Shown here piece after piece: positions 23,451-63,662 of a stretch of 64,000 bases of DNA (position 1 is its first letter; every line of letters starts with the position of its first letter). Made by a program: the position numbers and the translations under genes. This stretch comes from Candidatus Magasanikbacteria bacterium CG10_big_fil_rev_8_21_14_0_10_36_32. GTDB lineage: Bacteria; Patescibacteriota; Patescibacteriia; Magasanikbacterales; GWA2-37-8. The stretch lies in NCBI GenBank assembly GCA_002778465.1, contig PFBV01000001.1, positions 4,150 to 68,149 of the forward strand, given 5' to 3'. The notes beneath the pieces were generated by a model. It was not told the DNA's origin, made no database searches, and worked only from the letters and a program-made list of their open reading frames with translations.

Positions 23451-24173
23451 CTAGAAAGTTCCGGTTAGGGTGAAACCTAATGGCGCACTGTCTGATGTCG
23501 GTACTAGGATGAAATGATGCCGACTTCCGTTTTTAGCAGTATGGCCAAAGAAAATGATTTGGCCGTGGTAGATCATTCTCCATCCGGCCAAAAATATTAG
23601 AATGTTGCCAACAATCGGAAGCGCGTTACGCGGAAGATTTAAAGCTCGACGCAGCCGATTGTAGTCGCTTTCAGAATTTTGACTGTACAAGTTCATTGCA
23701 AAATCAATCAGCGGACAAGCCATTCCGCCAAAAAAGATGAATGTTTGCGTCCAGGGATTTTGTATAGCCGCGTAGCTAAGAAGTAAATCGGCTGACACAA
23801 ATAGGGCTATATCATTTATCATCGGGGCGGCTGAACGAAGAGCTGCTTGAGTTCTCGTCATTGAATCATTATCTATCCAAGTGATTTCTCCGAAGGCAAG
23901 TTGCTTGTGTCCGGAGATAACACGGGTATAGTGAGGGTATGGCTTGAAATTGTCGATTTTAACGCCGGATGCGGCGAGAACTAACGCGTGACTACCTTCA
24001 TGAAGAGTGGTCATCCAGAGGAAATAGACCGGGATTAACGAAGCGTGCACTGTCAGAATTTCCGCGGGGGCAAGTTGATTGGCGGCAATCGGACGGACAT
24101 TGTCGTCGGCCGAAATCGGAGTTACCATTAACAGAATTGAACAAATTGTTAAAAGAACAAATATATTTTTCAT
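23451..24173 (-). CDS. secreted/membrane HExxH protein (putative zincin-like), GC-rich gene
   Basis: A signal peptide, a TLHEGSHA (HExxH) motif and hydrophobic segments. An SD (AAGGAG) is present. Its GC content is clearly above that of its neighbours. Confidence 0.45.
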   Translation of the reverse strand: MKNIFVLLTICSILLMVTPISADDNVRPIAANQLAPAEILTVHASLIPVYFLWMTTLHEGSHALVLAASGVKIDNFKPYPHYTRVISGHKQLAFGEITWIDNDSMTRTQAALRSAAPMINDIALFVSADLLLSYAAIQNPWTQTFIFFGGMACPLIDFAMNLYSQNSESDYNRLRRALNLPRNALPIVGNILIFLAGWRMIYHGQIIFFGHTAKNGSRHHFILVPTSDSAPLGFTLTGTF

Positions 24174-24259
24174 TTTTTAGCTCCTTGTTTGAAGGAGAAC
24201 GACTTAATATAGCATATTTTCGCTTATTTGTCAAGAAAAGCGAAATCTATCAATTTATT

Positions 24260-25225
24260 ATGAAAAAAACAATTGTCGCAATAATGGGAGGTTATTCAAA
24301 AGAGCGGGAAGTTTCATTGGTAACCGGTCGGGCGATTTGTAAAAATTTAGATAAGACAAAATATAAAGTAATTCCTTTAGATTGGGGGAAAGACGGAAAA
24401 TTTTATCTTTGTAAAAACGGTCGCAAACAGTTTGATTTATTTGGCAACAGAAAAAAAATAGATAAAGTTTTTATCGCGTTGCATGGAACTGGGGGAGAGG
24501 ATGGCTGTATTCAAGGACTTTTGGAATGTTTTGGTATTTCCTATACAGGTTCTGATGTTGTATCCAGCGCGGTGGCGATGAATAAAGTTTTGTCCGCCGG
24601 AGTTTATCGTCGAATGGGTATTTTAACTCCTGATTTTATTGATTTTAAAAAAGGGGAGTGGTTAAAAGAAAAGAAAAAAATAATCGGGTTGATTAAAAAG
24701 AAAATTGGTTTTCCGCTGGTAATTAAACCGGTTGATCAGGGTTCCAGTGTTGGCGTTTACATTATTAGAAAAGAAAAAGAACTGATTCCGGCGATTAAAA
24801 AATCGTTTCAGACTTCAAACTGGCTGATGGCGCAAAAATTTGTAAAAGGTGAAGAGGCGACTTGCGGAGTGTTGGAAAAGAATGGAAAAGCATTTGCTTT
24901 GCCCCCGACAAGAATTGTGGCGAATGCCGGTAAATTTTATGATTATAAATCAAAATATAAAACCGGCGGTTCAACACATATTTGTCCGGCGGATTTCAAA
25001 CCGGCGATAAATAAGAAAATTCAGGATTTGGCGGTTCGGTCGCATCGCGGTTTTGATTGTTGCGGAATGTCCAGGACAGATTTTTTTGTCACGCCAAAAA
25101 ATAAAATTTATGCTATTGAAATAAACACTATTCCCGGCATGACGCCGATGTCATTATTGCCTGAAGCGGCGGGAAAAATGGGAGTTTCATTTTCTAAAAT
25201 GCTAGATTTAATTATAATGAGTTGA
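24260..25225 (+). CDS. ddl: D-alanine--D-alanine ligase
   Basis: MKKTIVAIMGGYSKEREVSLVTG... is an ATP-grasp Ddl. The track ORF start at 23969 is an antisense-overlap artefact; ATG at 24260. Confidence 0.85.
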   Translation: MKKTIVAIMGGYSKEREVSLVTGRAICKNLDKTKYKVIPLDWGKDGKFYLCKNGRKQFDLFGNRKKIDKVFIALHGTGGEDGCIQGLLECFGISYTGSDVVSSAVAMNKVLSAGVYRRMGILTPDFIDFKKGEWLKEKKKIIGLIKKKIGFPLVIKPVDQGSSVGVYIIRKEKELIPAIKKSFQTSNWLMAQKFVKGEEATCGVLEKNGKAFALPPTRIVANAGKFYDYKSKYKTGGSTHICPADFKPAINKKIQDLAVRSHRGFDCCGMSRTDFFVTPKNKIYAIEINTIPGMTPMSLLPEAAGKMGVSFSKMLDLIIMS

Positions 25226-25254
25226 AATTTAAAAAAAACAAAAAACGGTGTATT

Positions 25255-25465
25255 TTTTCCACCTTTTGAGCCGGCAAAAGGTGGAGGAAAACCGGCCGAG
25301 CCGATGTCCTTCTCTGGTACTGCCAATCGGTTCAGTATCGCTTTTGTTCAGAACTCGCCCTCGCCAAAAAGCGGGATACTCAAACAGCTGAACAAATCCT
25401 AAAAAGAACACTCAACTTCGCCGTGGCCAGATACCATCGTCGGCCATGTGCTCGGGGGACCAAAC
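25255..25465. ncRNA. candidate structured ncRNA (GC-rich island, identity unresolved)
   Basis: ~210 nt at a much higher GC content than its flanks, with no credible ORF. It has a perfect 9-bp hairpin at 25259-25284 whose loop can pair downstream, giving a pseudoknot-like fold. It has further long imperfect helices and a ctcgcc direct repeat. Confidence 0.3.
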
Positions 25466-25470
25466 GGTAA

Positions 25471-25531
25471 TTGAGTAATTAAAAATTAAGAAATTATTTA
25501 AAAATTACAAAATTAAAAATTAAAAATTCTT
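25471..25531. repeat. A-tract-rich intergenic element, copy 1 (attaagaaattattta-aaaatta-repeats-aaaattct)
   Basis: A near-identical ~45-nt string recurs at 32119-32170. Confidence 0.35.
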
Positions 25532-25532
25532 T

Positions 25533-26078
25533 ATGGTACCTGGTCTAATTGAAAAAGCAGTCCGATTAGCCACTTTGGCTCATGCCGGACAAAAACGCAA
25601 AGGGGATAATTTGCCCTACATAATTCATCCGATGATGGTGGCTTTGAAATTGGCAAAATACGGCGCGTCAGATGAAGTTATCGCCGCGGCTTTAACACAC
25701 GATGTTTTGGAAGATACGGATGTTCCGGTGGAAAAGCTGAAAGAGGAATTGGGCGAGGAAGTTTTGACAATAGTTCAGGCGGTATCAAATGATGATTCCT
25801 TGGGCTGGCTGGAAAAGAAGAAACATTACATTGAGACTGTCAAAAACGGTCCCGCCGGCGCCAAAGCCGTCGCCCTAGCGGATAAAATTCATAATTTGGA
25901 GAGTATTTTAATCGCTTATTCGGAGCAAGGGAAGGATGTTTGGAAAAAGTTTAATGGCACGAAAGAACAAAAGATTTGGTTTGAAACTGAAATGTTAAAT
26001 ATGCTAAAAAGCACATTTGAACACCCACTCATCGCTGAATACGAGCGGTTGATAGGGGAGGAAGGGAAATTAGATTAA
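25533..26078 (+). CDS. HD-domain phosphohydrolase (SpoT/Mesh1-like small alarmone hydrolase)
   Basis: The YIIHPMMVALKL...AALTHDVLEDT H..HD signature matches the RelA/SpoT hydrolase domain. Confidence 0.7.
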   Translation: MVPGLIEKAVRLATLAHAGQKRKGDNLPYIIHPMMVALKLAKYGASDEVIAAALTHDVLEDTDVPVEKLKEELGEEVLTIVQAVSNDDSLGWLEKKKHYIETVKNGPAGAKAVALADKIHNLESILIAYSEQGKDVWKKFNGTKEQKIWFETEMLNMLKSTFEHPLIAEYERLIGEEGKLD

Positions 26079-26093
26079 TATTTATTTAAATAT

Positions 26094-26486
26094 ATGTATA
26101 GAGTAACCCAACAAGTGACTAATTTATATAATGCCTTAATTAATCGAGGAATTAAATGTAAATTAGAGGATGATTCAGATGGACACAAAACTGTGGATAT
26201 TTCAATTCCTGCGTCAAAGATAAATATTGAAGTGGATGGACTGCAACACTATATTGATCCGGAACAGATTAAAGCCGACTTTAAAAGAAGTTATTGGTCT
26301 ATTGAAAATGATGATTATGACACTTTTCATGTGTCAAATATTGTTATTGATAATCATTTAGAACAAGTGGCGGATGCCCTTGCAATTGTCGCTCGGTCAC
26401 ACTATAATGCAATTAAAGAAGAGGAGAAAGAAGAGAATGATTCAGTGGGAATTTGGAATTGGATAAAAAATTTGTTTGAAAAATAA
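26094..26486 (+). CDS. DUF559/Vsr-like PD-(D/E)xK endonuclease-fold protein
   Basis: GIKCKLE...VDISIPASKINIEVDGLQH...DFKRSYWSIENDDYDTFHVSNIVI matches the DUF559 pattern G.KFRRQ..VDF...KLIIEVDG.QH...D..R...L...G..V.R..N. Confidence 0.55.
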   Translation: MYRVTQQVTNLYNALINRGIKCKLEDDSDGHKTVDISIPASKINIEVDGLQHYIDPEQIKADFKRSYWSIENDDYDTFHVSNIVIDNHLEQVADALAIVARSHYNAIKEEEKEENDSVGIWNWIKNLFEK

Positions 26487-26487
26487 T

Positions 26488-26697
26488 ATGAAAAATTTTA
26501 TAAAAGAAAACTGGTTTAAGTTATTTATTGTTTTGGTTATAATTGTTATTGTTGGAGTATATTCTTATCAAACAATCAAACCCAAAACAAACCAAGATAA
26601 AGTAAACGACTGTCTAAAATTAAGTAGTGATTTTGGAGCCGAGATGTGCTTAGAATTACTTTTAAAACAAGAGGTAAAACAACAAATAGAACAATAA
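26488..26697 (+). CDS. small single-pass membrane protein
   Basis: The ATG lies 2 nt after the upstream stop and is followed by an N-terminal TM helix (FKLFIVLVIIVIVGVYSY). Confidence 0.4.
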   Translation: MKNFIKENWFKLFIVLVIIVIVGVYSYQTIKPKTNQDKVNDCLKLSSDFGAEMCLELLLKQEVKQQIEQ

Positions 26698-26704
26698 AAT
26701 TTGA

Positions 26705-27445
26705 ATGAATATGAATAAATTTGATAAAATTAAAAATTCTGTTTTACCAATTGTAAATAATTTTTCTCCCGCATTAGTAAGTAGTTTGAGTGCACTGAGT
26801 CTAATTAATCCGGGGTTTTTACCATTAATTTCTTTGGCACAGTCAATTTTGGGATATTGGGGAGATTACGCTAACAACAAAACGCAGGATTTAATACAAG
26901 ATTTTATAGATAATAAAGAAAATATTATTGGAGATGTTGTTGCAACTGATAAATTTAAAGCAAATTTTTTAAAAATTATTAGTGATAACATAACAGAAAG
27001 TAATGAAGAAAAAAGACAGTATTTAAAAAATTATATTGTGAATTTCGCCTGTGGTGTAGATCCTGATTTTAATGAACATTCAAAATTAATTTATACGCTT
27101 AACAATATTACTTTAGAAGAAATGGAAATGTTAAAGTTGTGGAATGATGATGGTGCCATTGAAAAACAGTATAGAATGGTGGGGGATAGTCCTGATAGAA
27201 ATATAAGGAACAATACTCTTGATATTAATGCGATTGAAAATATTATACACACTCAAAAACCTCAACTGAAGATATTAAAGATTGAAAGACAAAATCAATC
27301 AAAAAATAATCAGATATTATTAACACTTGGTTACAAAGGACTATTATATGTTTTGGGAGCGGACAATTTTGGATCAGGTGTGGAAGCAAGAACCAAAGGG
27401 CTGACTGATTTTGGAAAAATATTTTTAAAGTTTATAAAAAAATAA
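26705..27445 (+). CDS. hypothetical protein (246 aa), operon member
   Basis: Tightly packed in a same-strand 5-gene cluster. No family recognised. Confidence 0.45.
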   Translation: MNMNKFDKIKNSVLPIVNNFSPALVSSLSALSLINPGFLPLISLAQSILGYWGDYANNKTQDLIQDFIDNKENIIGDVVATDKFKANFLKIISDNITESNEEKRQYLKNYIVNFACGVDPDFNEHSKLIYTLNNITLEEMEMLKLWNDDGAIEKQYRMVGDSPDRNIRNNTLDINAIENIIHTQKPQLKILKIERQNQSKNNQILLTLGYKGLLYVLGADNFGSGVEARTKGLTDFGKIFLKFIKK

Positions 27446-27459
27446 AATTATTATCTTTT

Positions 27460-28068
27460 ATGAGCAATATTAGAGTATGTGCTGCATGTGGAAAAGAACA
27501 AGCCATTGATAACTTTTCTGTTGATAGATCTGAAAATGATGGCAGGAGTCGGGTGTGTAAAAAATGTAACAAGGAATCCTGTAAAAAGTATGTTCAATCA
27601 AATTATAAAAAAAATAAAGAAAAATTAAACAATGGCACCCTTGACGAACCAACCAAAGTTAAAAAATGCAGAATATGTAAAAAAAATAAGGCCACCATAT
27701 CTTCATTGTGGCCCAGAGATTTTAGCAGAAGAGATGGTTTTAACACTGCTTGCAAAGTTTGTGTGGCTATTAAACAACAACGTCCAAATGAGGTTTTAGC
27801 TAAAATGAAACAAAATGCTAAAAAAAGAGGGCTTGAATTTCATTTGTCCATAGAAGACCTAAATAAATATTGGGGGAAACCCTGTTATTATTGTAATCAA
27901 AAAACAATTGGCTGGCTTGATAGAATAGATAGCTCAAAAGGATACGAGCTAAGTAATGTTGTCCCTTGCTGTGGAATATGTAATACAATGAAGTTAGATT
28001 TACCAGAAGATAAATTTTATAGCCACATGAAATTAATTTTAGAAAATATTAAACAACGAAATAAATAG
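27460..28068 (+). CDS. tandem zinc-ribbon + HNH-like nuclease-fold protein
   Basis: Two CxxC...CxxC ribbons at the N-terminus. The C-terminus (WGKPCYYC...LDRIDSSKGYELSNVVPCCGICNTMK) follows the HNH layout CxxC..D[H]I.P...G.....N...C..CN..K, with Arg in the usual His position. Confidence 0.5.
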   Translation: MSNIRVCAACGKEQAIDNFSVDRSENDGRSRVCKKCNKESCKKYVQSNYKKNKEKLNNGTLDEPTKVKKCRICKKNKATISSLWPRDFSRRDGFNTACKVCVAIKQQRPNEVLAKMKQNAKKRGLEFHLSIEDLNKYWGKPCYYCNQKTIGWLDRIDSSKGYELSNVVPCCGICNTMKLDLPEDKFYSHMKLILENIKQRNK

Positions 28069-28110
28069 ATCTATAACAAAAAAACACGAAAAAAATTGTG
28101 TAAATAAATT

Positions 28111-28779
28111 ATGACAGAAAATATTATACAGGAGCACAATCAGCGAGAAAAAGATGTAATTGATTTTTTAACGACGGCATCTGAGGAAATCAATTATTCT
28201 ATAAGTAAGCAACCAAATGGCGACCCATTGCTTCCACATAGGGCGCGCTTGTCTTTAATTTTTACTTTAATTGATATTTTGGGATTATATTGGGATAAAT
28301 ATTGTGGATTAAACAATACTCAAAGTATATACTTCAAAAATTGGGTATCGTTTTTTTGTTTAACACAGGAAAATGCAGTATATGATAAAAATAAATTTAT
28401 TAAACAATTTAATTGTGAAGATTTTTATAAATTGAGATGTTCCATACTACACTTTTATGGCATACCAAGAACAAGTGAAGGAATACAATATATTCTATTG
28501 CCCGATTTTAATATAATTCAAAAAATGAATTTCAAATCAACACCTGAAGCATTTGTAGATGTTTTATCTTCCAGCATTAAAGCAGAGCATAGGATAGTAC
28601 AAATAGAGCTTTTTAAACAATTGGTTTGGACAGGAAGTATTAGCATGATAAATAAAATGAAACAATATCTTAAAGCCCAGCCGCAGCAGCACATTGATGG
28701 AATAAAAAGAATACATGAAGAAGTAAAAGATCGGGGAGTTAGCAAAATTAATATGGAAGAGGGGAATATTTCTAAATAA
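28111..28779 (+). CDS. hypothetical protein with possible HEPN-like Rx4H motif
   Basis: It contains LRCSILHFYG (R-x4-H). This is weak evidence. Confidence 0.4.
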   Translation: MTENIIQEHNQREKDVIDFLTTASEEINYSISKQPNGDPLLPHRARLSLIFTLIDILGLYWDKYCGLNNTQSIYFKNWVSFFCLTQENAVYDKNKFIKQFNCEDFYKLRCSILHFYGIPRTSEGIQYILLPDFNIIQKMNFKSTPEAFVDVLSSSIKAEHRIVQIELFKQLVWTGSISMINKMKQYLKAQPQQHIDGIKRIHEEVKDRGVSKINMEEGNISK

Positions 28780-28797
28780 TTTATTTTAACAAAAAAA

Positions 28798-28823
28798 TCA
28801 CCCGTTTCGGCGGGTAATTTTTT
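28798..28823. terminator. terminator between the 5-gene operon and convergent recombinase gene
   Basis: An acccg / cgggt stem is followed by a T-run. Confidence 0.5.
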
Positions 28824-28833
28824 ATTTGATATT

Positions 28834-29796
28834 TTACTTTTCGCCGCTGTGGAATTTTTTGTGGATGTCGCGAAGGCGGGGATTGGTCAAATGAGTATAA
28901 ATCTGCGTTGTGACGATGTTTTTATGCCCTAAAAGCTCCTGAACAGAGCGCATATCCGCGCCTTTTTCCAGTAAATCAGTGGCAAAACTATGTCTAAGCG
29001 TGTGTGGAGTGGCGTCCACCGGCAAACCGGCCATGGCATTATATCTTTTAACCATTCTTTCAATCGAGCGGGGAGTCAGCCGATGTTCTTTATCTTCCTT
29101 ATCCGTCCGGTAATTGATAAATAACGGCTGAAACATATCCTGGCGGGTTTTGAGATAAGCGCCCAGCCATTTCAGCGCCCGTTCGGAGAAAAAAACCACC
29201 CGCATTGAACCGCCTTTTCCGGCGATGGATAATTCCTGATCGGAAAATTTTCCGTTGATTAAATTTTCTACATTAAACTGCTTAATATTAAGCGACGTTA
29301 ATTCAGAGACGCGCATGCCAGTAGAGAAGAGGACTTCTAAAATCGCCCTGTCACGCATTCCTTCAGGGCTTTCTAAATCAGCCATGGAGAGCAATTTCTC
29401 CACCTGATCAAACTTAAGGAACTTAATCGCTTTGTCCTTATCAGTCAATTTGGGTAATTTTATCTTCTCGGCCGGTAAAGCGACGATATCTTTCTCGGCG
29501 AAATAATTTAAAAGGTTGCGCAAGGCGATTAGATAGTAGTTTTGAGTCGTCTTTTTGGAATAATGGCCCTTGAGGTCTTTTTTGCGTGAAAGGTATAGGC
29601 GGTAGTCCCAAATGTGCTTAGGGGTCAACTCATGGGGCTTAAGATTGTCCTGGCGGGTCATCTTTAGCCAGCCGGAGAATATTTTGAGGAAGTTATCATA
29701 GTTGTGGCTGGTAACGGGAGACAAACCTTTTTCCACCTCGCAGTAATCCAAAAAAGAACTGATCTGTTTAATTATAGGGGTGGATGACTTATTCAT
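28834..29796 (-). CDS. tyrosine site-specific recombinase (XerC/XerD-family integrase)
   Basis: The C-terminal HTLRHSFATDLLEKGADMRSVQELLGHKNIVTTQIYTHL carries the catalytic R..H..R..Y tetrad context. There is an N-terminal core-binding domain. Confidence 0.85.
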   Translation of the reverse strand: MNKSSTPIIKQISSFLDYCEVEKGLSPVTSHNYDNFLKIFSGWLKMTRQDNLKPHELTPKHIWDYRLYLSRKKDLKGHYSKKTTQNYYLIALRNLLNYFAEKDIVALPAEKIKLPKLTDKDKAIKFLKFDQVEKLLSMADLESPEGMRDRAILEVLFSTGMRVSELTSLNIKQFNVENLINGKFSDQELSIAGKGGSMRVVFFSERALKWLGAYLKTRQDMFQPLFINYRTDKEDKEHRLTPRSIERMVKRYNAMAGLPVDATPHTLRHSFATDLLEKGADMRSVQELLGHKNIVTTQIYTHLTNPRLRDIHKKFHSGEK

Positions 29797-61233: not shown

Positions 61234-61305
61234 TCCGGGGTAGCGCAGCGGTAGCGCAGTTGACTGTTAATCAATTGGTCGTGGGTTCGAATCCCACCCC
61301 CGGAG
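61234..61305 (+). tRNA. tRNA-Asn (anticodon GUU), no encoded CCA
   Basis: Manual fold: a 7-bp acceptor stem (tccgggg / ccccgga), a 4-bp D-stem (gcgc), an anticodon stem gttga / tcaat, loop ctGTTaa, T-arm gtggg-ttcgaat-cccac and discriminator G. Confidence 0.85.
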
Positions 61306-62763
61306 CATATCGTTAAAACTATGAGTTTTAGGAGCCCCAGCCATTATTTGGAAGGGCTCTTTTAGTTTATATGTAGCCAAATTTTGATTTTCAATATTTA
61401 GGTTCCAAAGTAGATTTTCTATGATTTTACGCTTCCCAAAATTATCTTTGTTTAAAAATTCTTTTTTCGCTAGATTAGGGAAAAGAAAGACCTGTTTTGT
61501 AAGTTCCAAAGTATCACAATGGTTATCCTTGTTAGTCTCAGTTTGTTTTAATTGCATTTCGGTTTCAACCTGACACCTCTTTAATCCTTCCATTTTTGCC
61601 TTATAAACGTCCTCAGGGGTTAAACCATTCAAATAGCTGTCTAAAAGACGCTCTTGCTTTATACGGGCAATTTTAAGCTGTTCCTTGAGGGTATTTATAA
61701 TTTGTTCGGCTCCGCTTTTATTACCTTCCGATTTTTCCTTCGCCGCCGAATACATTATTTCCACCAATTCTTTATCAAAAGACAGGTTTTCAAAAATCTC
61801 CATAATCATTTCGTCTATCTTTTCAGAACGCAAATATTTTTTATGTTCTTCACATTTTCCTTTGCCATTTGTGCAATAATAATAAATATGACCTTTTTTA
61901 ATTGTCCCAGTCAAAGCACAACCGCAAACGTTGCACTTCATAAAACCACGATGAGGAAAATCATGTTTTTGTTTTCTGATATTATTTTTTCCACTCAAAA
62001 CCTCTCCGGCCCGATTAAAAATTTCTTTGGTTATTAGGGGTTCATGATTAGCCGGGTAAAATTTACCGTCTCTTTCCATTATTCCGTAATAAAGACGATT
62101 GGTTAAAATTCTATGAATAACACTCTTGGTGACCTTTTTTCCAGGACGAGTTCTAAAACCTTTTTGATATATTAAATTTGTAATTTCTTTAATACTATAA
62201 CCGCCAGTAGCATATAGATTAAAAAGTTCGGTAATGTAATGACCCTTTTGTAAGTCAATAATTATTTTCTTATTTATTTTGTCATTCAAGTATCCAAGCG
62301 GGGCGGCATTTGGCCATTCTCCTTTTTCTAATTTTGTTCTAATACCTCTTTTAGTATTTACGCTTAAATCATCAACATATTTTTTAGCCATTCCAAAATC
62401 TAATGACATCATGAAATTATCATTGCTAGTGCTATAATAATTTTTTTCATAAGTTCGAACTTCACGAATCAAACCTTGTTGCATATACCATTGTAATTCT
62501 CCACTATCCTTAGAATTTCTTGATAAGCGGTCTAATTTCCAAACATAAACAATGCATTCTTTATTTTTTTCAATATATTTTAACATCTCGGCAAATACAG
62601 GCCGACCCGGGGCTTTGGCCGACATCTTTTCCACAAATATTTTATCAAAAACAATATTATCCCTTTGTGAGAGCTTTTTCATTTCGACTGTTTGGGATTC
62701 TATTGAAAGAATCTGTCTATCTTCGGTATCTGTGGATTTGCGACAATACGCGATGTATTTCAT
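61267..62763 (-). CDS. large serine recombinase (resolvase/invertase-family integrase)
   Basis: An N-terminal catalytic motif (AYCRKSTDTEDRQ, Ser10), a recombinase domain and a C-terminal zinc ribbon (CNVCGC...YYCTNGKGKCEEH). The last 13 codons are antisense to the tRNA-Asn 3' half. Confidence 0.85.
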   Translation of the reverse strand: MKYIAYCRKSTDTEDRQILSIESQTVEMKKLSQRDNIVFDKIFVEKMSAKAPGRPVFAEMLKYIEKNKECIVYVWKLDRLSRNSKDSGELQWYMQQGLIREVRTYEKNYYSTSNDNFMMSLDFGMAKKYVDDLSVNTKRGIRTKLEKGEWPNAAPLGYLNDKINKKIIIDLQKGHYITELFNLYATGGYSIKEITNLIYQKGFRTRPGKKVTKSVIHRILTNRLYYGIMERDGKFYPANHEPLITKEIFNRAGEVLSGKNNIRKQKHDFPHRGFMKCNVCGCALTGTIKKGHIYYYCTNGKGKCEEHKKYLRSEKIDEMIMEIFENLSFDKELVEIMYSAAKEKSEGNKSGAEQIINTLKEQLKIARIKQERLLDSYLNGLTPEDVYKAKMEGLKRCQVETEMQLKQTETNKDNHCDTLELTKQVFLFPNLAKKEFLNKDNFGKRKIIENLLWNLNIENQNLATYKLKEPFQIMAGAPKTHSFNDMLRGWDSNPRPID

Positions 62764-62774
62764 ATTTAAAAAAA

Positions 62775-63662
62775 TTAAAATATTGGTTCGTCTTTTTTTT
62801 CTTCGTAGTCTATATATCGATTAATGAAAGCAAGGGCTTGTTTTTTTTGTTCTGGAAATTTTCGTAAATTATAATTAGTATAGTTCATAGAATCAAAATA
62901 GTCTATTTTTATATTTTGTTTTGTATATTCTATCGACTCCTGTGGAAGTATTGTTAAAACTGGTCTAATTAATTCATCATAATTTACGACAATCGGTTTA
63001 TATAACCCTTTGCTAATAAAATATGATTTTTGTCCCCTCAATCTTTCGTTGTTAATTTCTTTAGTCATGTACTTTGTTATATAGCGACCAACATTCATAA
63101 TCCGATTTATTGCTTTAATTTTTGTAAAACCTAACCCCCAACACTTCTCAAAGATTCTTTTCATTTCCATTTTGTAAGGCAAATTAAAAAAAATACTATG
63201 ATAATGAATAGCTCCCCGTTCTTGAAATTCAACCACTGTTACATACTTAAAAAAACTTTCTTTTCGTCCGTTCACTGCTGTATTTAATCTCTGAATAAAC
63301 TTAGTAAATTCGTAATTTGCTGCTTTTATATCCAATACGTTTTCCCCAAAGGTTAAGGTAATAAATATAGGCCAAAATGCACGACCTCTTTGATCAAAAT
63401 ATGCTCTAACATTTGAGTTTGTATAATCAATGATTTGACGGCGAGCACGTCGGTATCTCATTTGGTCTAAGGTTTCTTGGTCTGTTGCAGTACCTTTCGA
63501 TTTGTCTCTAAATGTTCTTGGATGACTACCAACAAAGTATTCTCGACCATATTCGTAATATTCAAAAATATCGCCAGATATTTTTAGACGCTCTTTGGTT
63601 GAATAGTGAATATCACCGTTAAAATGTATTAGACGACTCATATCGTTGGCTTTGTTTAGCAA
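62775..63662 (-). CDS. HUH rolling-circle replication initiator (Rep) protein
   Basis: Motif I FITLTF, motif II HYHSIFF (HUH) and motif III YITKYMTK (catalytic Tyr-x3-Lys), in canonical order. Confidence 0.7.
   Translation of the reverse strand: MLNKANDMSRLIHFNGDIHYSTKERLKISGDIFEYYEYGREYFVGSHPRTFRDKSKGTATDQETLDQMRYRRARRQIIDYTNSNVRAYFDQRGRAFWPIFITLTFGENVLDIKAANYEFTKFIQRLNTAVNGRKESFFKYVTVVEFQERGAIHYHSIFFNLPYKMEMKRIFEKCWGLGFTKIKAINRIMNVGRYITKYMTKEINNERLRGQKSYFISKGLYKPIVVNYDELIRPVLTILPQESIEYTKQNIKIDYFDSMNYTNYNLRKFPEQKKQALAFINRYIDYEEKKDEPIF

Follow-up and report, generated by a model that had tools for sequence, protein, structure and literature searches.

Five forward-strand genes, g1 to g5, lie between the core genes ddl and xer in a stretch of 64,000 nucleotides (nt) from Candidatus Magasanikbacteria bacterium CG10_big_fil_rev_8_21_14_0_10_36_32, a tiny bacterium of groundwater (contig PFBV01000001.1, positions 4,150 to 68,149; hereafter the window). 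They are best explained as a patchwork, restricted to one species, of independently mobile genes of defence or selfish type that occupy a variable slot between the two core genes; we give this reading a probability of about 0.6. The genes would have been placed head-to-tail behind one promoter without forming one co-evolved machine, and the parts most likely act independently. A preliminary description of this DNA had proposed a candidate defence or selfish module of five genes abutting a recombinase. Its system-level claim fails, because co-occurrence of the genes is not conserved and the recombinase is the chromosomal Xer, two outcomes that the description itself had listed as speaking against it; the defence or selfish flavour survives at the level of single genes. 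The families of g3 and g5 are found within restriction-modification (R-M) operons elsewhere, and the block is foreign in composition and specific to its lineage.

Co-occurrence of the gene families

Profile hidden Markov models (HMMs) of the g3, g4 and g5 families, i.e., those with detectable relatives, were run on every open reading frame (ORF) of all loci fetched. Exactly one family was found at 87 loci for g4, at 40 for g5 and at 8 for g3, and none of these 135 other loci held a second family; in particular, a g4-family gene occurs at 0/40 of the g5-family loci, and a g5-family gene at 0/87 of the g4-family loci. More than one family was seen only in the window and in its three same-species copies. 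Since 0/135 other loci combine the families, g1 to g5 do not appear to be a conserved five-gene unit; the unit was found in no other species, and each of the three families stands alone elsewhere, in unrelated contexts.

Several observations weigh against the patchwork interpretation. Close relatives are few (two above 50% identity for g4, one for g5, none for g1 and g2), so that the missing co-occurrence is weak evidence with regard to g1, g2, g4 and g5. The tight spacing, the single terminator and the uniformly low content of guanine and cytosine (GC) in g1 to g5 would also be in line with their joint acquisition and co-expression as one unit. Finally, the coupling of a g4 orthologue to a different HEPN gene at the level of translation (see below) is a hint that g4 and g5 may work as a pair.

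One novel, lineage-restricted anti-phage system of five components, or of six if the HD gene upstream is counted, would likewise account for the operon-like packing, the one terminator and the uniform composition, as well as for the presence of several nuclease folds together with a small membrane protein and for the defence-type neighbours of the g3 and g5 families in other genomes. We nevertheless consider a single system quite improbable: no pair of families recurs outside this species, the families are found alone in diverse contexts, PADLOC offers no match, and the supposed mobility gene is a housekeeping Xer.

Layout and composition of the block

The preliminary description was accurate as to the architecture. 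The five genes share one strand and are tightly spaced, with 1, 7, 14 and 42 nt between them in an ORF scan of the window, and 15 nt separate the HD gene from g1. The block ends at an intrinsic terminator (28800-28825, + strand; hairpin and T-run at 28800-28815) that serves the convergent xer gene as well. It was also correctly described as more AT-rich than its surroundings: the GC content of g1 to g5 is 0.294 (0.26-0.32 for single genes) against a window mean of 0.354, which ranks in the lowest 0.24% of same-size windows, the minimum among 2.7-kb stretches of the 64 kb being 0.293. The same gene arrangement was found on 11 contigs from several samples. An exact-match look-up assigns NCBI tags COU29_00175-00185 to this region.

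Scans of Pfam, NCBIfam and PADLOC returned nothing significant for g1, g2, g3 and g5, and the PADLOC check suggested in the preliminary description gave no match between any of the genes and any model. The ORF scan found no R-M gene at 22-34 kb of the window, so the block itself does not fit the pattern of R-M-linked second-line defence for which PrrC is the paradigm; embedding in R-M operons was seen for homologues at other loci (L100, L102, L010 and L004-6).

The Xer recombinase and the ddl-xer slot

The tyrosine recombinase gene that bounds the block (28834-29796, - strand) matches Phage_integrase at 8e-41 and the XerD and XerC models at 2e-68 and 3e-67, under their equivalog cut-offs. When one genome per species was scanned, 301 relatives were recovered; some 30 top-ranking ones, 68-78% identical, are from Magasanikbacteria, and those of other Patescibacteria are 42-60% identical. 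Magasanikbacteria loci keep the gene order serS-alr-ftsQ-xer, facing a convergent ddl-M23 pair, and because of this conserved order the recombinase is judged to be the housekeeping chromosomal Xer and not the integrase of an island. Thus, the preliminary description was right about a convergent XerC/D-family recombinase, which is, however, no mobile-element integrase; it serves as a boundary marker and stands outside the module. Operon-like packing beside a gene with a "phage integrase" domain is, here, not a sign of a mobile multi-gene system.

Xer, at 70-78% identity, and its synteny are kept with or without cargo in the slot, and the ddl-xer gap ranges from 25 bp to 6.7 kb across lineages. 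In four relatives it measures 25-75 bp and holds only a terminator hairpin; in six it is 0.5-2.7 kb long and holds unrelated singleton genes, such as those for a cyclophilin and a GIY-YIG protein (named by eye); and in eight, at about 5.2-6.7 kb, it accommodates a block of genes for flavodoxin, 2-oxoacid:ferredoxin oxidoreductase and ADP-forming acyl-CoA synthetase; three genes of this block were checked against Pfam. No relative of the HD gene or of g1 to g5 was detected at any of 80 related xer loci (tblastn, E<1e-4), and for this reason the whole segment 25226-28833, the HD gene included, is regarded as accessory and lineage-specific. The HD gene had been taken for a core gene, which does not agree with its absence from the syntenic region in 80/80 related loci; its GC content is 0.43, unlike that of g1 to g5.

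The preliminary description had advised a search for direct att-like repeats around 25.5 and 29.8 kb. Direct or inverted repeats of this kind were sought near 25.5 and 28.8 kb, and only short AT-rich matches at chance level turned up, e.g., an 18-nt inverted pair at 25488/28768. There is no tRNA gene near the block either, the sole one in the window being at 61.2 kb. An integrase-borne genomic island, with its island-specific recombinase, att repeats and tRNA target, is therefore not what is seen here, and Xer was also rejected as the mobiliser of the block. The hairpin that follows ddl, when aligned to the terminators of "empty-site" relatives, had no convincing homology to them.

In another Patescibacteria metagenome-assembled genome (L218, 4863-6496), a g4 homologue of low GC content (0.32 vs 0.41) is located 5 nt upstream of a tyrosine recombinase gene whose product is only 34% identical to the Xer of the window, and this pair sits just past ddl, mur-ligase and ftsQ-like genes. 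Here, too, a PacI-like gene and a Xer-type gene are neighbours amid cell-division genes, which makes it the second such case.

g4, a predicted nuclease of the PacI type

The product of g4 (27460-28068, + strand; 202 amino acids, aa) consists of two N-terminal zinc ribbons, each of the CxxC...CxxC form, at residues 7-36 and 70-101, and a nuclease domain at approximately 115-200. The latter contains C142xxC145...C170C171xxC174, the LDRID motif at 153-157, and the residues D154, R155, G161-Y162, N166 and N175. The protein matches PHROG 1035 ("endonuclease VII") at 8e-25, and when the family profile was run against PDB with hmmsearch, it retrieved PacI (3ldy, 5.2e-6), with a match that spans the ββα-metal core as well as the N-terminal ribbon. 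D154, R155, N166, N175 and the cysteines (C142, C145, C170/171 and C174) are invariant in the family alignment, where G161-Y162 reaches 90% conservation or more. Besides many distant orthologues, g4 has two close ones (58% and 54% identity), and viral contigs, giant-virus bins included, contain at least 546 sequences related to its nuclease domain.

The double zinc ribbon and the LDRID motif, with arginine in place of the usual catalytic histidine, had been noted in the preliminary description, and the motifs are as described. According to reviews, from which the mechanism is taken here, PacI has no such histidine and a loop tyrosine takes over its role; PacI also has no cognate methyltransferase, and the PacI group is mainly viral (PMC5714182; PMC4081073; PMC3384342). 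Because PacI lacks the histidine and uses tyrosine, and because 79 of the 82 viral relatives of g4 have D-R instead of the canonical HNH D-H, the substitution is, as judged from sequence, a hallmark of the active PacI clade and not a mark of degeneration or inactivation. The candidate interpretation of g4 as a "dead HNH" was ruled out by this active-site variant. The protein carries the full signature of the clade and is predicted to be a PacI-type His-Me finger nuclease, a further member of a known clade.

The likeness to R.PacI and to the PacI-like "group 20" (Jablonska et al. 2017, PMC5714182) extends to the N-terminal CxxC...CxxC ribbon, the ββα-metal core with CxxC...CCxxCN, D-R for D-H and the G-Y loop tyrosine, the lack of an adjoining methyltransferase gene, and the mostly viral family. 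There are also differences: g4 has the second zinc ribbon at 70-101; its host genome is 35% GC, so that an AT-rich 8-mer site like that of PacI would not be rare in it; and the viral relatives may be homing nucleases, not restriction enzymes. The g4 protein may be an active, sequence-specific one-metal DNA endonuclease in which Tyr162 stands in for His, and it could be a restriction enzyme that, like PacI, does without a methylase, or else a selfish nuclease of the homing type.

The overwhelmingly viral distribution of the g4 family also raises the question of whether the block is the decaying remnant of a phage or mobile element, with no present cellular function. The faint resemblance of g1 to domains of phage homing endonucleases, the foreign low-GC composition, and the phage-like or recombinase-bearing contexts of other g4 homologues would be in keeping with such an origin. 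However, all the ORFs are intact and catalytic residues are conserved, 2.9 million viral contigs yielded no member of the g3 or g5 family, the block holds no structural, replication or integrase genes, and its arrangement is identical on the 11 contigs mentioned above. A remnant is thus a highly improbable explanation, and the patchwork of individual genes is preferred to it.

g5, a member of an uncatalogued HEPN family

The R-x4-H motif for which the product of g5 (28111-28779, + strand; 222 aa) had been called HEPN-like is confirmed as R109-x4-H114 (LRxSxxHF, encoded at 28435-28452). These two residues are the sole invariant columns among 56 diverse family members, 18-55% identical to g5, and N88 is nearly invariant in the same alignment. 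The fold is all-alpha, and in PDB it resembles HEPN toxins and AbiV most closely; a PDB search with family sequences gave nothing meaningful. Thus, g5 carries both the HEPN signature and the HEPN fold. It does not match the HEPN models of Pfam or PADLOC, and single family members only touch pEK499_p136, Cthe_2314 or DUF3644 with E-values of 0.008-0.05. Since no curated HEPN sequence family matches, g5 represents a family that is not yet catalogued; the superfamily itself is very well known, and the genomic niche is a known one.

In a word-indexed search, 5.8 billion proteins gave only one non-identical homologue; HMMER, run exhaustively on 1.84 billion representatives, gave 85 (clusters at 50% identity). 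A metagenome scan yielded 39 loci, with the homologue inserted between hsdM and hsdS of a Type I R-M system in two of them and in unrelated contexts in the rest. The nearest homologue (55% identity) comes after a SelR gene.

HEPN genes embedded in R-M operons are known from at least 16 clades, with PrrC as the mechanistic paradigm (PMC3710099), and AbiV is an rRNA-cleaving HEPN protein restrained by an RNA antitoxin (bioRxiv 10.1101/2024.05.05.592566). With the abortive-infection and toxin RNases of this group (AbiV, HEPN-MNT, PrrC; PMC3710099) g5 shares the invariant Rx4H and the all-alpha fold, and with the R-M-embedded clades its family shares the position between hsdM and hsdS. Unlike them, g5 exceeds minimal HEPNs in size, lacks an MNT, ABC-ATPase or obvious antitoxin partner, and has no adjoining R-M genes in the window; its family lies outside the curated Pfam and PADLOC models, and one third of the members have a SEC-C motif. 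We suppose that g5 dimerises like other HEPN toxins, so that a composite Rx4H RNase site would form, and that it acts as a toxin-type or abortive-infection RNase, probably silent until infection, for which PrrC and AbiV are precedents.

The SEC-C-type zinc motif (CxCxSGKKYKxCY) is N-terminal and present in 18 of the 56 family proteins; g5 is without it. When PADLOC was run on the family alignments, 18 members matched the E1-E2/E2 models and 16 matched PDC-S12, matches that are probably best explained by this motif, carried by 18. A gene for an SDH-type ClpP-like serine protease (4332-5306 of L102) adjoins a g5-family R-M operon.

g4 and g5 as a possible pair

The 54%-identical orthologue of g4 (L133, 3263-4364; also L134) extends 8 nt into the start of a gene for a 164-aa HEPN_AbiV-family protein, which passes the Pfam threshold of that family (1.3e-7; 32.4 bits vs 27.1), and the two genes are inserted together between ruvB and queH. 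This coupling speaks for g4 and g5 as a genuine pair, composed of a PacI-type DNase and a HEPN RNase, with g1 to g3 as unrelated neighbours. Such a pair might take the form of a dual DNA- and RNA-targeting defence, of a toxin and its partner, or of a homing nuclease with HEPN cargo; it would imply repeated assembly with non-homologous HEPN partners, and it is partly nested in the patchwork reading. A HEPN gene is next after g4 in two of the three close orthologues known, and HEPN domains are on record as having fused independently with HNH/EndoVII DNases (PMC3710099). The sample, however, is n=3; in the third close orthologue (L132) the next gene encodes an HTH_17 protein, within a recombinase-bearing element; no g4-like gene adjoins the nearest g5 homologue; and the two families share none of the 40 and 87 loci counted above. 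On balance we regard a genuine pair as rather unlikely, and independently acting genes remain the preferred explanation.

A more specific proposal, that the PacI-type, tyrosine-dependent DNase and the HEPN RNase constitute a small mobile cassette, which enters between housekeeping genes of the Candidate Phyla Radiation (CPR) and swaps its HEPN partners, is in our opinion unlikely. If true, the cassette, with a g5-family HEPN here and an AbiV-family one in L133, would be an undescribed DNase-RNase module of defence or addiction, and the g5-type HEPN family would be a new effector family of such a cassette.

The g3 family and its contexts

The product of g3 (26705-27445, + strand; 246 aa, or 244 aa from the start at 26711 in public gene callers) is a helical bundle with a C-terminal winged helix. 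It belongs to an uncharacterised family of 41 homologues, few of which have a source name, and those named are all from Patescibacteria. Comparison of a g3 structure model with viral structures and a PDB sequence search with the family gave, respectively, nothing and nothing meaningful. We suggest that g3 may bind DNA via its winged helix, and that it could serve as one of the sensors or regulators that travel with R-M operons.

The contexts of six homologues were sampled. The closest (70% identity) is flanked by the hsdS and hsdR genes of a Type I system; another follows a Type III R-M pair (N6_N4_Mtase and ResIII), near a tRNA; and one is among housekeeping genes, after an SDH-type protease. 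Two distant homologues (L007, 6748-7296, and L008, 6733-7278) are each followed, at 3-6 nt, by a conserved protein of 181-182 aa; these proteins are 64% identical to each other, have no Pfam match and are absent from the window. The g3 homologue and this protein possibly form a two-gene module, and one homologue trailed by the 181-aa protein also adjoins a serine recombinase. At L219-L221, an SDH-type ClpP-like serine protease (4818-5747 of L219) is encoded directly upstream of the g3 homologue.

Abi-alpha (PF14337/DUF4393; Enterococcus prophage 6, PMC6356687) resembles g3 in size (272 vs 246 aa), in being all-helical, and in occurring as a single gene in defence or prophage neighbourhoods; it differs in that g3 has the C-terminal winged helix and a family not seen in viral contigs. 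Weak matches to PF14337 were obtained for 3 of the 41 family members (best E-value 0.002, none at threshold) and none for g3 itself, and the Abi-alpha identity was rejected as unproven.

Genomes of CPR/Patescibacteria are tiny, and few defence systems have been catalogued in them. The g5-type HEPN proteins and the g3-type helical proteins with a winged helix are two uncatalogued families that recur in R-M operons of Patescibacteria, and both are candidate additions to catalogues of defence genes.

Other genes and elements of the window

The first two genes of the block are orphans. The product of g1 (26094-26486, + strand; 130 aa) had been described as a DUF559/Vsr-like PD-(D/E)xK protein. Its residues 30-96 align with the C-terminal two thirds of PF04480, and the motif IEVDGLQH (E-x-D-G-x-x-H), shared with that nuclease domain, is visible by eye; the score, at E 0.031 and 14.6 bits, is below the gathering threshold of 20.6, and no homologues were retrieved, be it from PDB, from viral contigs or by tblastn against phages and plasmids. 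A weak match of the homing-endonuclease type to PHROG 559 ("HNH endonuclease", 4.6e-4) was also seen. Thus, g1 is a near-orphan that is weakly DUF559-like and possibly a nuclease. For g2 (26488-26697, + strand; 69 aa counted from the ATG, which is 1 nt past the g1 stop), the earlier account of a single-TM protein is in keeping with one N-terminal hydrophobic helix at residues ~10-27; scans of PHROG, in addition to those of Pfam, NCBIfam and PADLOC, gave no significant family match.

Upstream of g1, the HD gene (25533-26078, + strand; 181 aa) encodes a small phosphohydrolase of the HD_4, RelA/SpoT-hydrolase-like kind, with matches to PF13328 (8e-17), the N-terminal region of TIGR00691 (6e-24) and PHROG 990 (3e-29); no relatives were found in viral contigs. 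The 307-nt spacer between ddl and this gene (25226-25532, + strand) contains a 16-bp hairpin at 25253-25290, followed by a GC-rich, multi-stem element of about 170 nt. The spacer as a whole is GC-rich and strongly structured on the + strand (minimum free energy -82.9 kcal/mol, fold z = -4.3) and matches no Rfam family. It is likely the promoter and leader of the transcription unit from the HD gene to g5, and could represent a leader or small RNA upstream of a RelA/SpoT-hydrolase-like gene.

The longest ORF of ddl (23969-25225, 418 aa, as also in public calls) begins about 100 codons too early. It overlaps an opposite-strand gene at 23451-24173, and Ddl-like sequence starts at about 24263 (MKKTIVAIMGG).

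At the far end of the window, the 3' end of a tRNA-Asn gene (61234-61306) overlaps with a gene for a large serine recombinase (61267-62763, - strand) with Resolvase, Recombinase and zinc-ribbon domains, and next to it, at 62775-63662, is a REP_ORF2-G2P replication initiator. The segment 61234-64000 is a small element integrated at a tRNA gene and running off the end of the window, and it is the real integrative element of this stretch.

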